This document shows, piece after piece, positions 21,001 to 27,000 of a DNA stretch of 64,000 nucleotides (its first letter is position 1; every line of letters starts with the position of its first letter). Origin of the DNA: Escherichia coli. Lineage in GTDB: Bacteria > Pseudomonadota > Gammaproteobacteria > Enterobacterales > Enterobacteriaceae. The position numbers are program-made. Location: the NCBI RefSeq assembly GCF_045037415.1, contig NZ_CP173438.1. The stretch is one strand, 5' to 3'.

Positions 21001-24000
21001 CGGCCTGGCTGCTCAGTGGTATGGATGGCATGTTGGCTTTGCCCTTGCGGGAGGCGGCATGTTTATCGGTTTGTTGATTTTCTTAAGTGGTCATCGTCAT
21101 TTCCAGTCCACGCGTAGTATGGATAAAAAAGCGCTCACTAGCGTCAAATTTGCCTTACCAGTATGGAGCTGGTTAGTGGTGATGCTCTGTTTAGCCCCAG
21201 TATTTTTTACCCTGCTGCTGGAGAACGACTGGTCCGGATATTTGCTGGCGATCGTTTGCCTCATTGCAGCACAAATCATTGCCCGCATGATGATCAAATT
21301 CCCCGAACACCGCCGTGCTCTTTGGCAAATTGTATTGTTGATGTTTGTCGGGACGTTGTTCTGGGTACTGGCACAACAGGGCGGCAGTACCATCAGCTTG
21401 TTTATCGATCGCTTTGTGAATCGTCAGGCATTCAATATTGAAGTACCTACAGCACTATTCCAGTCGGTGAATGCTATTGCGGTGATGCTCGCTGGGGTTG
21501 TTCTGGCCTGGCTGGCGTCGCCAGAAAGCCGCGGCAATTCAGCATTGCGCGTCTGGCTGAAGTTTGCCTTTGGCTTACTGCTGATGGCTTGTGGCTTTAT
21601 GTTGCTGGCATTTGATGCCCGACATGCAGCGGCTGGCGGTCAAGCGTCAATGGGCGTGATGATATCCGGGCTGGCGCTAATGGGCTTTGCTGAACTCTTT
21701 ATTGACCCGGTGGCGATTGCGCAAATCACGCGTCTGAAAATGTCTGGCGTATTAACCGGTATTTATATGCTGGCAACAGGCGCGGTCGCCAACTGGCTGG
21801 CAGGCGTCGTGGCACAGCAGACGACAGAGTCGCAAATTAGCGGTATGGCAATTGCCGCTTACCAGCGATTCTTTTCTCAGATGGGAGAGTGGACGTTGGC
21901 TTGTGTCGCGATCATCGTGGTATTGGCCTTTGCTACCCGTTTTCTGTTTAGCACGCCGACGAATATGATACAGGAGAGCAACGATTAACTGTCGTAAAAA
22001 CAATTGGTTATGAATAAATTAACTTTCAGTTTATCACACTAGTAAATCGAGATTAATAAGTCATTTAAACCATTTTGATGGTTATTTATTAGTGATATCA
22101 ACTTGAGGTAAGCGTTAGTTTCGATAAGATAAACTGAGTTATTAATAGTCGAGGCAGATAATACAGTGTACCGATCTGTCTCTTTATCTACGCTAAATTG
22201 AAAGCTGGATTTAGAGGAACCAAAATGTCTGAACGAGAAACACGGGGAGCCAATGAGGCTATTGATTTTAACGATGAACTGAGAAATCGCCGCGAAAAAC
22301 TGGCGGCACTACGTCAGCAAGGTGTGGCGTTTCCCAATGATTTTCGCCGCGACCATACCTCTGACCAGTTGCACGAAGAGTTTGATGCGAAGGATAACCA
22401 GGAACTGGAATCCTTAAACATTGAAGTCTCGGTTGCTGGCCGAATGATGACCCGTCGTATTATGGGGAAAGCCTCCTTTGTAACGTTGCAGGATGTCGGT
22501 GGCCGTATTCAACTGTACGTTGCAAGAGATAGCCTGCCAGAAGGTGTTTATAACGATCAGTTTAAAAAATGGGATCTGGGTGACATTATCGGTGCCCGCG
22601 GTACGCTGTTTAAGACGCAAACGGGTGAGCTTTCCATTCACTGTACTGAGCTGCGCCTGCTGACTAAAGCACTACGTCCTTTACCAGATAAATTCCATGG
22701 TCTGCAGGATCAGGAAGTCCGTTATCGTCAACGTTATCTGGACCTCATCGCTAACGATAAATCCCGTCAAACGTTTGTTGTCCGTTCAAAAATTCTGGCC
22801 GCTATCCGTCAGTTCATGGTCGCGCGCGGCTTTATGGAAGTAGAAACCCCGATGATGCAGGTAATTCCAGGTGGGGCATCTGCTCGCCCGTTTATTACCC
22901 ATCATAACGCTCTGGATTTAGATATGTACCTGCGTATCGCGCCGGAGCTGTATCTGAAACGTCTGGTTGTAGGCGGTTTTGAACGGGTATTCGAAATCAA
23001 CCGTAACTTCCGTAATGAAGGTATTTCTGTTCGCCATAATCCTGAGTTCACAATGATGGAACTCTACATGGCATATGCGGATTACCATGATTTGATTGAA
23101 CTGACGGAGTCACTGTTCCGCACCCTGGCACAAGAGGTACTGGGTACCACTAAAGTCACTTATGGCGAGCATGTGTTTGATTTCGGCAAACCGTTTGAAA
23201 AACTCACCATGCGCGAAGCAATCAAAAAATATCGTCCAGAAACCGATATGGCGGATCTGGATAATTTTGATGCTGCTAAAGCATTAGCTGAATCTATCGG
23301 TATTACGGTAGAGAAAAGCTGGGGACTGGGGCGTATTGTTACGGAGATCTTTGATGAAGTGGCAGAAGCACATCTGATTCAGCCAACCTTTATTACGGAA
23401 TATCCGGCAGAAGTGTCCCCGCTGGCGCGCCGTAATGATGTTAACCCGGAAATCACCGACCGTTTTGAATTCTTCATCGGTGGTCGTGAAATTGGTAATG
23501 GTTTTAGCGAATTAAACGACGCAGAAGATCAGGCTGAACGTTTCCAGGAACAGGTTAACGCTAAAGCTGCAGGTGACGACGAAGCCATGTTCTATGACGA
23601 AGATTACGTGACTGCGCTGGAATATGGTCTGCCGCCAACCGCTGGTCTGGGTATTGGTATCGACCGAATGATTATGCTGTTTACAAACAGTCATACTATT
23701 CGCGACGTTATTCTCTTCCCGGCGATGCGCCCACAGAAATAAATTTCACTTTAATGAACGAAGCAGTCAGGCGACTGCTTCGTTCGTCATTCCGCAAATC
23801 CAGTTTTGAGGAGAGACGCTTCGTTTCAAGATAACCAGCGGGTCCACTCAACTACAGCTCCTAAAAGAGAGAAAAAAGTAATGCCACAGGCAAACTCATT
23901 GGCCAGGTTATTCCGACCAGAAATGCACTAAGTAAACGAATATGTGTTTTCTCATGTGAGATAAACCAGATAATGACAAAGGATATGTTCACACCAATCA

Positions 24001-27000
24001 CATAAAAAATTAATATTTTAGAGAATAGTGCCATTTTTTATGTTCTTCTTATCCTTCCTGGCTACTTGTAAAACTGACGGAAATAGTCATCAACTGTCAT
24101 AATGCTGAGGTCAAAATCAATATCCGGTAAGTCTAAGCATTTGAGCCTGATTAAATCTTCGATTTCACTTGCGGCTAACGATGTCGTTATTGCGAAGGAG
24201 TTTTCATTCAATTGTCGTGGTATCCCATATTCATCAGCCACGATAGAGGAGAAATTCATATCATACATCAATGATCTTAACCTTAAGAACACTGAGGAAT
24301 AAGATGATGGATAATCAAAAGAAACAACATAAGTATTGAACTTGTTTTTACCTTCCATAATATGACTCCTATCAATATTGAACGCTCTGGGGACGCAAAA
24401 CTTATTAACCCCGAATGATGATTCTCATATAGGAGATATTCTTTTTTTTTTGCTCAGTAAAGGGGATGACTTGGGACAAAAAAACGCTCTCTCTGACCAT
24501 TCTTTGTGCATCTCCTACCCTTCAGATGCTCTCCTGCATCACACCGCGGAGAGCATGAAAAATATCGTGACTCTGTACTCTCCCATCAACTGCGAATATC
24601 ATCATACTCCCGTGTTTTATCAAATTCGTGTTTCGCAAATGGGCATAGTGGGATAATTTTTCGTTTTTCCCGACGCATTTTTTCCACGACTTTCGCAACC
24701 AGCTGTTTACCAATCCCTTGTCCTTTCAGGCTTTCATCGACATCGGTATGTTCGATAATCGCTAAATTCTCTCCGGTCGGCACAAAGACAATTTCAGCGA
24801 TTTGCTTGCCCTGTTCGTCATTAATGTAAAATTTATTGTGGCCTTCGCGTATTTCCATTTTACCCTCGCTTATTTATGACGGTATTTCAGCGCACCGCTC
24901 GGGCACGTACGTTTGAGGTTAAATAACTTGCCGTTACCACGTACGCAATTGCCAGAATTTGTAGTGATGCGATGGGCACCACTTTCCAGGGTAGTCAGAG
25001 CCATACCTTTACTAGCTGCATTAACCCGGGAGTAACATCACTACAGGCCCCTCTTCAGGGGCCTCTCCTTGTCAGAACATATACCGGAAATTCGCGTTTA
25101 TTGCGTTATCCACGTTGTATTTACCAAAGGCGGATTTCTCAAACTCCAGACCAAAGCGCATGTTGTCCTTTATCTGTGCGTTCATGCCAACATTGAACAA
25201 CATCCTGCTGTCTTTCTCCCCTTTGATCCGTTTCTCTCCGGATGCATCACGAAGAACTGTCTCGCCATTATTCAGCAGGTCAAACTGCCAGCTGGTTCCG
25301 GCACGGGCTGTCACACTCCAGTCCTTACCCCTGAAGGTTTTGCCCAGCTCAATCCCTGTTCTGCCAATCAACGGGCTGAAATCCTTGTTCTTCATACTCA
25401 GGTCCATCTCACCGTCTTTCCAGCGGAATGTTTTCCCGGACACTGCGCCGTAAACCAGTTCGGCCTGAGGCTCAATAAATGTGTCTTCCGTCAGGTGATA
25501 ACGGTAACCCGTTTCCGCTCCGGCATACCAGGAGTGGGTTCCGTAGTGCTTCGTCCCCAGACCGGCAAAGTTACCTGTGTAGTCATTGTCATGGTGAATA
25601 TATTTACCAATCAAATCAATGTAGGCACCGGAGTTAAACAGTGCTGAAGCATACAGACCTCCCCCCACGGATTTTGTCTTCCCGCTGAACGCATCACTGT
25701 CTGCACTGCTGTCGGTATAGGTCATCGTGACACCGGTGAACAGGTCAACACCGTCCAGCGCATGTTTTTTGTCAAAACCGACCTGAACGTGGGTGTAGTT
25801 ATCACTGTATCCGCCATCGGCTGAACCGGCGCCGTTCATAATACGGGCCCAGGCACCGGCATCACCGTTCGTGTCACGCAGCTCCCCCATACGTTTGTTC
25901 AGATTGTTTACTTCCGTCATAAAGCTTTTGTAGCCGGCATTCATGAAACTGTTCGCCTTCGCTGCAGCCGCTTTATCAGCTTCCGTCCTGAAACCATCCA
26001 GAATCCACTTCGTACTGCCGCCAGTGGTGTCAACACGCAGCGTCGGCGTCACACGACTGAAGCCTGTCACCCGGGTGCCGGCCTTAAAGATATCCCCTGA
26101 TGTTCCGGCCGGTGCACTGACCAGCGGGATATTCAGGGACTGTCCCGGAGACGGGTTCTTCATAAAGCTGACATTCAGGGTGTTGTCTGAACCGCTGGCT
26201 TTCTCCGTAATACTGATTTTATCAGCGTCCTTCAGATCAGTGCGCAGGACAAAATCACTGCCCGTGGCATCAAGTGTCTTAACCGTCAGGGTACGGAAGG
26301 CACCGTTTTCTTCAGACTGTACCCGGCTGTTACGGGTCGTCAGACTGTTGATGTCGGAATCTCCGGTCAGCTGCCACAGGCCATTATTCATACTGACGTT
26401 CCCCTTACCGCCGGTGATGGCACCGTAGTACGCCGCGTTATATCCGCTGAACAACCCGGCAGCCAGAACAGGGGAGACAGAAGAGGAAACTGAGCCAGGG
26501 TTTTCGGAGCCAATACGAATGCTGGATGAACTGGTTGCATGAACATCCCCGGAAACATGCGCCTGCTGGCTGATGTTCAGCGTAGCGTTATCACCGGTTA
26601 AATCATAGCCTTCTGTCATGTATGTCAGTACGGGCATCCAGGTATTATCAGCGCCATTTTCCGGCGTGCCGCTCAGGGAAAGCGTACCTTTCTTTCCAAT
26701 CTGAACCCGGCCGTTACTGTAGAGCCCTTTTTGTGCCGTCAGATGACCGCCGTCACGGACAGAAAGGGTGGAATTCACGAAAACACCACTGTTCTGCAGC
26801 AGGGCATCCGGTGAGGTGACGTTTACCTTACTGTCATGGGCTTCAATACCGCCAATGAACCGGTTGTTGATGTCCAGCGTGGAGCCTTTTTGCAGTGTAA
26901 TTTTGCCTGTATAGCTGCTACTGCCATCATCTGCTGAGCGTCCTTCACGAACGTCCTGGCGGAAGCCAAAACCATTACCGGTGATATTGATGCCATCATA

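Follow-up and report, generated by a model that had tools for sequence, protein, structure and literature searches.

Does a virulence island alter the toxin–antitoxin genes beside which it sits? GhoST has been a textbook type V toxin–antitoxin system since 2012, the antitoxin gene ghoS having formerly been called yjdK and the toxin gene ghoT yjdO. In the 64,000-nt stretch of Escherichia coli DNA analysed here (the window), this pair is the neighbour of an island that carries the SPATE genes tagB and tagC (Table 1). The reading that we prefer, with a probability of roughly 93%, is that ghoS and ghoT belong to the chromosomal core and occupy their ancestral place between lysU and yjdJ, beside and independent of the published tagB/tagC island, and that at least 533 nt upstream of ghoS stay unchanged by recombination between the island repeats.

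Table 1. Coordinates in the window of ghoST, its surroundings and the adjacent island.
Feature	Position	Strand	Description
GC-rich hairpin between convergent lysU and ghoT	23756-23785		13-bp stem, GAACGAAGCAGUC...GACUGCUUCGUUC
ghoT	23861-24034	-	57-aa membrane toxin, two hydrophobic segments (ORF, Pfam, hydropathy)
ghoS–ghoT spacer	24035-24061	-	27 nt; ghoT ribosome-binding region
ghoS	24062-24358	-	98-aa type V antitoxin, endoribonuclease (ORF, Pfam, PDB 2LLZ match)
ghoS–yjdJ intergenic region	24359-24585	-	227 nt; presumed ghoST promoter site
Left island repeat	24586-24958	-	full yjdJ (24586-24858, native B2 allele) and yjdI 3′ fragment with 57-bp deletion
Unique DNA of the tagB/tagC SPATE island	24959-40058		15,100 bp, 41.1% GC
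8-bp GC hairpin just 3′ of the tagC stop codon	25045-25064	-	AGGCCCCUGAAGAGGGGCCU; no U-tract
tagC	25072-29001	-	within island
AraC-type regulator	30157-30987	-	within island
tagB	31885-35724	-	within island
Fimbrial chaperone gene	36687-37379	+	within island
Fimbrial usher gene	37412-39949	+	within island
Right island repeat	40059-40488	-	second yjdJ (40059-40331, two derived SNPs) and 3′ part of intact yjdI
yjdI, intact	40343-40573	-	Fer4_19, E = 9e-30

The ghoST Genes and Their Products

An earlier note on this DNA had recognised the locus as ghoST with both genes intact. This is borne out, as both open reading frames were recovered exactly where they had been placed and the Pfam matches agree with the identity to the K-12 proteins. 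The ghoS product matched the GhoS family (PF11080, E = 1.1e-40) and the ghoT product matched Toxin_GhoT_OrtT (PF10753, E = 8.9e-26). Comparison of GhoS with chain A of PDB 2LLZ (YjdK of K-12, a ferredoxin-like fold) revealed 97 identical residues out of 98, the sole change being N85S. All 57 residues of GhoT agree with those of K-12 GhoT; its protein id, WP_001173343.1, is common to K-12 MG1655, LF82, JJ1887 and KE21, and its hydropathy peaks fall at residues 7–26 and 34–57. Judged by these matches, ghoS and ghoT are homology-supported genes and not chance ORFs. The N85S form of GhoS, a B2-lineage allele, is also present in the island-free strain LF82.

The antitoxin gene comes first and the toxin gene follows on the same strand after a short spacer, which is the two-gene operon layout expected of a GhoST type V system, with putative co-transcription. 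The spacer shows no change among MG1655, LF82 and KE21. GCU sites, counted in the window sequence, number three in ghoS and none in ghoT. Moreover, the order lysU / ghoT-ghoS / yjdJ-yjdI / dcuSR is the same as in K-12, as seen in the annotations of JJ1887, MG1655, KE21 and LF82. The hairpin between lysU and ghoT, in a region whose 131-nt fold gave z = -3.2, is likely a bidirectional terminator shared by both genes.

In the K-12 literature, GhoT is described as a small membrane peptide with two helices; it damages the membrane, and ATP falls (PMC4010927, PMC4344625, PMC11783221). GhoS is a stable endoribonuclease which neutralises GhoT by cleaving ghoT mRNA rather than by binding the toxin or by an antisense RNA (Wang et al. 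2012, cited in PMC4010927). From the 99% identity to K-12 GhoS we infer that GhoS would act here in the same way, by cleaving the toxin mRNA, and by near-identity the function of ghoST as a whole is presumably carried over from K-12. The K-12 system has the same genes, chromosomal position, spacer length and distribution of GCU sites (3 vs 0) as the locus in the window. The differences are N85S in GhoS, a few SNPs together with an altered T-run length in the upstream intergenic region, and the absence of MqsR/MqsA from the K-12 locus in matching ST131 genomes (see below).

The tagB/tagC Island and Its Repeats

Habouria et al. (2019, Virulence; PMC6592367) described a tagB/tagC SPATE island of 41% GC that is located 'between yjdI and yjdK' and whose direct repeats consist of a yjdJ duplication; they reported it in ST131 strains such as JJ1886. 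The island in the window has the same site, yjdJ repeats, a GC content of ~41%, two tandem SPATE genes and the same features of TagC (1309 aa, with the motifs GDSGS and, in the linker, EVNNLNKRM), and on these features it is identified with the published 15.1-kb island; nothing material differs from the published description. The ghoST system, the island and its yjdJ repeats are already known, the island since its publication in 2019. In a literature search combining ghoS with yjdJ and ghoT with ST131, no publication came up that connects ghoST with this island.

The ORFs of 24959-40058, whether annotated or not, include no integrase or transposase, no tRNA gene lies anywhere in the 64,000-nt window, and the island junction has no att/tRNA site. 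Site-specific excision was rejected, as both integrase and att site are missing. The island likewise falls outside the integrase-driven, tRNA-associated class of pathogenicity islands, having neither an integrase nor a tRNA/att site at its junction, and for the same reason the 'integration point' of the earlier note is inapplicable in its site-specific sense. This leaves homologous recombination between the repeats as the one visible path by which the island could enter or leave.

The left repeat begins at the yjdJ stop codon (24586) and aligns, with 99% identity, to the DNA from 40059 on; the left copy is 373 bp and the right copy 430 bp long. The left-type yjdJ allele (YjdJ protein id WP_000405647.1) is also present in island-free LF82 and KE21, and the SNP pattern marks the left yjdJ and the right yjdI as the native parts. 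This pattern fits insertion by a single homologous crossover (Campbell-type). The 57-bp yjdI deletion of the left repeat and the assignment of native parts by SNP pattern are details that do not appear in the available excerpts of the PMC6592367 text.

The island sits between native yjdJ and native yjdI, flanked by the duplication of yjdJ and the yjdI 3′ end. Recombination from repeat to repeat would gain or lose it, and no fewer than 533 nt ahead of ghoS would stay as before. Any influence of the island on ghoST would then be distal, either by replacement of the yjdI promoter region with the tagC 3′ end or by read-through from tagC.

The Sequence Upstream of ghoS with and without the Island

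The left repeat starts 227 nt from the ghoS ATG at 24358, so the distance of 'within 230 bp' given earlier holds. The consequence drawn from it, that island gain or loss alters the sequence immediately upstream of ghoST, is not supported. In the near-isogenic island-free genomes KE21 and R9, no base differs from positions 21062-24891 of the window, an interval that extends from lysU over ghoT, ghoS and the intergenic region and covers yjdJ whole. KE26, also island-free, gives the same empty-site match. Upstream of ghoS, 533 nt are unchanged in these relatives; genomes with and genomes without the island begin to diverge at base 24894, which is 536 nt upstream of the ghoS ATG. On the right side, the two yjdJ SNPs are the sole differences of KE21 and R9, which have the left-copy base at each. 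Over 34.5 kb of flank they differ from the window by ~10 SNPs, counted as 3 mismatches within 10.5 kb and 7 within 23.9 kb.

Since the left repeat comprises a complete native-allele yjdJ and the yjdI 3′ end, recombination across the repeats would rebuild the same sequence. A complete native yjdJ acts as a buffer at the junction, which leaves the 533 nt upstream of ghoS independent of the island. Loss of the island from KE21, R9 and KE26 and its never having been gained are both compatible with the data. These near-isogenic genomes are already public and could serve the comparison with and without the island that the earlier note had proposed.

The ghoST promoter is presumed to lie within the candidate region 24359-24585. 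Among island-free genomes, KE21 is identical to the window in this region and LF82 departs from it by 1 mismatch and 1 indel; relative to MG1655 there are 7 mismatches and 3 gap columns. A promoter consensus scan of 23700-25200 returned 4 promoter-like sites against 3.2 expected, nothing above chance. An Rfam scan of 23000-26000 (E ≤ 1) gave no match and the fold of the yjdJ–ghoS intergenic region (z = -0.9) no significant structure. The terminator scan of 23700-25200 found no terminator-like site, with none canonical after yjdJ or tagC or between tagC and ghoS. The hairpin behind tagC lies in a region whose 121-nt fold gave z = -3.45; it fell short of the scan criteria and is a possible terminator that lacks a U-tract.

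Distribution and Alternative Explanations

Prevalence was counted in 5426 complete E. coli genomes, with positions 23740-24600 of the window as the ghoST query and at least 80% of it covered. It was found that ghoST is present in 5264 of these (about 97–98%), the left island junction in about 603 (~11%) and the reconstructed empty site in 4718. ghoST is a core-genome locus, outside the island. These counts bear on the idea that ghoST is an addiction (stabilisation) module which keeps the tagBC island in the chromosome. Physical adjacency is the only point in its favour, and we regard it as extremely improbable: ghoST lies outside both repeats and is not lost along with the island, it is far more widespread than the island, and the near-isogenic island-free genomes retain it unchanged. 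An island-borne addiction module was rejected on both position and distribution (5264 vs 603 genomes). A weaker form of the earlier idea is an effect from afar, in which the island parts yjdJ-ghoST from the divergent yjdI/dcuS promoter region or sends tagC transcripts into it. The yjdI promoter upstream of yjdJ, moved 15.5 kb away by the island, may be where a share of ghoST transcription begins; tagC, the yjdI fragment, yjdJ, ghoS and ghoT have the minus strand in common, and the stretch from tagC to ghoS showed no canonical intrinsic terminator, the post-tagC hairpin being without a U-tract. Nevertheless, that hairpin has a strong 8-bp GC stem, presence of the island makes no difference to the 533 nt upstream of ghoS, and the K-12 papers handle ghoST as its own operon (PMC4010927, PMC4344625, PMC11783221). 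In three genomes IS1 lies ~54 bp upstream of ghoS and both genes are still annotated as intact, so that upstream change is tolerated. Taken together, a distal effect seems unlikely, and an independent core locus remains the preferred reading.

Another alternative concerns the activation of GhoT. In K-12, MqsR cleaves the mRNA at the GCU sites of its ghoS portion; ghoT escapes cleavage, and the toxin is thereby set free (PMC4344625, PMC11783221). The GCU asymmetry counted here agrees with this published property. The mqsRA genes were found in 2298 of the 5426 genomes (42%). In ST131 genomes whose sequence is identical to the window, the K-12 site of mqsRA proved to be a contiguous ygiS-ygiV junction from which these genes are absent. 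As mqsRA is missing there, the K-12 activation step may not apply in the ST131 lineage. The gap between this 42% and the ~97–98% of genomes with ghoST is a small reminder that the K-12 cascade from MqsR to GhoT cannot be general. Both the low prevalence of mqsRA and the ST131 junction would suit the view that ghoST is a silent leftover in this lineage, its known activator being absent. This is very unlikely in our estimate: both reading frames are intact with GhoT unchanged from K-12, neither the spacer nor the GCU asymmetry has been lost, ppGpp-dependent induction of ghoST transcription has been published (PMC11783221), and the presence of ghoST far above that of mqsRA argues for an MqsR-independent function.

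An intact ghoST with its GCU asymmetry in ST131/B2 genomes that lack mqsRA at the K-12 site, at more than twice the prevalence of mqsRA, makes another trigger of GhoT possible. It might be supposed that GhoT is released by such a trigger in most E. coli, and that the trigger or the basal transcription is altered by the island, through loss of the yjdI promoter context or tagC read-through. We hold this combination to be quite unlikely; if true, toxin expression would be tied to the expression of a virulence island. A different arrangement is known for OrtT (YdcX), an orphan GhoT homologue of the same Pfam family PF10753: according to PMC4344625 it has no antitoxin and does have GCU sites, whereas ghoT here is paired with ghoS and has none.

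The ghoST Locus and Its Neighborhood

Both genes of the toxin–antitoxin pair are intact and were rightly named and placed in the earlier note, as open reading frames, Pfam matches and near-identity to K-12 reveal. The solved structure of E. coli YjdK (PDB 2LLZ) aligns with GhoS end to end with 97 of 98 residues identical, N85S being the sole difference. GhoT contains two hydrophobic segments and has one RefSeq protein id common to K-12 MG1655, LF82, JJ1887 and KE21, and the 27-nt spacer between ghoS and ghoT does not differ from that of K-12.

The ghoST genes and the direct repeats of the island
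Feature	Coordinates	Strand	Length	Remark	Source
ghoT	23861-24034	-	57 aa	Pfam Toxin_GhoT_OrtT, E=8.9e-26	six-frame ORF list
ghoS	24062-24358	-	98 aa	Pfam GhoS, E=1.1e-40	six-frame ORF list
left direct repeat	24586-24958			starts at yjdJ stop codon	repeat search + pairwise alignment
right direct repeat	40059-40488				repeat search + pairwise alignment

The gene order is lysU(+), ghoT(-), ghoS(-), yjdJ(-), yjdI fragment(-), the island, a second yjdJ(-), intact yjdI(-) and dcuS/dcuR(+). The distance from the ghoS start codon to the left repeat is 227 nt, which bears out the proposed proximity of within 230 bp. Identity to the window over 23000-26000 is 100% in numerous ST131 genomes, among them JJ1887 and O25b:H4 strains.

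The DNA between the repeats (15,100 bp, 41.1% GC) codes for two Peptidase_S6 autotransporters, an AraC-type regulator, a fimbrial chaperone and an usher. It is the tagB/tagC island of Habouria et al. 2019 (PMC6592367), and on the description given there the island gene nearest to ghoST (25072-29001, 1309 aa, motifs GDSGS and EVNNLNKRM) is tagC. Both the ghoST operon and the tagBC island beside it have been described before. Between the AraC-type regulator and tagB there is a further 160-aa ORF (31196-31678, -), unannotated in JJ1887, whose match to sigma-70 region 4/LuxR-type helix-turn-helix was weak and below threshold (E=3e-5); it may be a second small island regulator.

Sequence Upstream of ghoS with and without the Island

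The empty site was found in three island-free genomes, KE21, R9 and KE26, at 99.9% identity to the reconstruction; KE26 is known by database match only, while the sequences of KE21 and R9 were fetched (7.7 kb) and are the same over that length. KE21 is a near-isogenic relative of the window, its larger flanks having 3 mismatches in 10.5 kb and 7 in 23.9 kb (~10 SNPs in 34.5 kb). Over window 21062-24891, spanning lysU, ghoT, ghoS, the complete intergenic region and yjdJ in full, there are zero mismatches with KE21 and R9. On the right-hand side of the site, the only differences from the window are at the two SNPs that set the yjdJ copies apart, where both genomes have the left-copy bases. The presence of the island first makes a difference at position 24894, which lies 536 nt upstream of the ghoS start codon. 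The proposal that island gain or loss would change the DNA directly upstream of ghoST is thus not supported; what stands of the earlier reading is that the locus is real, intact and beside the island.

In LF82, an island-free B2 strain, the GhoS and YjdJ proteins are the same as in the window, and its 227-nt ghoS-yjdJ intergenic region departs from that of the window by one mismatch and one indel. The same region of K-12 shows 7 mismatches and 3 gap columns, differences that are lineage divergence and are not tied to the island. A real natural change to the proximal upstream sequence of ghoS is provided, unlike by the island, by IS1, which lies in the intergenic region ~54 bp upstream of the ghoS start codon in 21AR0807 (L006:1273-1970 in the sequence of that strain; ~24412 in the window), AVS0578 and GCU-H1. 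All three carry the island, and in each the annotation still gives both ghoS and ghoT as intact.

Could ghoST be a part of the island? This was rejected, as it lies outside both repeats and its 861-bp stretch (23740-24600) is covered to at least 80% in 5264 of 5426 complete E. coli genomes, against 603 with the left island junction. The reconstructed empty site (ghoS, intergenic region, yjdJ, yjdI and dcuS) occurs in one contiguous piece in 4718 genomes. From these counts, ghoST is a core-genome locus flanking a variable site. An action of the island on ghoST from afar, via read-through, is a weaker form of the earlier idea and has a low probability. It would be favored by the shared direction of tagC, the yjdI fragment, yjdJ, ghoS and ghoT, by the 15.5-kb displacement that the island imposes on the yjdI/dcuS promoter region, and by a consensus scan in which no terminator was found. 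Promoter-like matches in the consensus scan were at chance level only. A stable 8-bp GC hairpin directly follows tagC, without a U-tract, and the yjdJ-ghoS intergenic region gave neither a significant fold nor an Rfam match. For any experiment on an island effect, KE21, R9 and KE26 are natural comparators, all three near-isogenic to the window and free of the island.

Possible Routes of Island Entry and Loss

The repeats are 99% identical over yjdJ. Compared with MG1655, LF82 and KE21 they display a hybrid pattern, in which the left yjdJ and right yjdI are of native type, while the right yjdJ copy carries two derived SNPs and the left yjdI fragment three, along with a 57-bp deletion evident in pairwise alignment. 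This pattern fits a Campbell-type insertion, in which a DNA piece with a foreign yjdJ-yjdI segment would have brought in the island by a single homologous crossover. The window contains no tRNA, and the island ORFs, annotated and unannotated, include neither an integrase nor a transposase, so homologous recombination between the repeats is the only visible route of loss; it would yield the exact KE21/R9 arrangement with single yjdJ and yjdI. All 603 island-bearing genomes have one and the same left junction, at an identity of at least 99.6% among the matches listed.

Mechanism and MqsR

According to published work on K-12 (PMC4010927; PMC4344625), GhoT is a membrane-damaging peptide and GhoS an endoribonuclease cutting ghoT mRNA; by near-identity to K-12, both activities would be expected here. 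The mqsRA-linked step of the K-12 model is probably not applicable. There are three GCU triplets in ghoS and none in ghoT, an asymmetry through which, as PMC4344625 and PMC11783221 describe, MqsR destroys the ghoS part of the transcript and spares ghoT. The type II system mqsRA, the GhoT activator in K-12, was found in only 2298 of the 5426 complete genomes versus 5264-5342 for ghoST, so the majority of ghoST loci exist without MqsR. In the ST131 strain JJ1887 (L012:24345-26543), ygiS adjoins ygiV and mqsRA is missing from its K-12 site. This junction is 100% identical in EC958, JJ1886, Ecol_AZ146, THO-003 and p11A, the last three of which are likewise 100% identical to the window over its first 15 kb. 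A reduced toxin–antitoxin repertoire has been reported for phylogroup B2, ST131 included (PMC10790755).

Other Loci in the Window

At 47506-48954 (-), melA directly abuts yjdF (46859-47509, +), as it does in the KE21 annotation, with no melB between them; in K-12, melB lies between the two. This lineage appears to lack the melibiose permease gene.

Upstream of cadC, window 1-14750 holds the distal end of another island, at the site occupied by pheU-linked islands; its tRNA falls outside the window. It contains GTPase, DUF932, antirestriction and JAB/RadC genes, a cbeA/cbtA type IV toxin–antitoxin pair at about 7756-8557, a DUF4942 gene interrupted by ISEc10 (istB 10094-10849, istA 10846-12345), an EAL-domain gene (12668-14203) and an integrase remnant (about 14589-14748). 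In KE21 this island takes a different form and has an additional ParDE pair.
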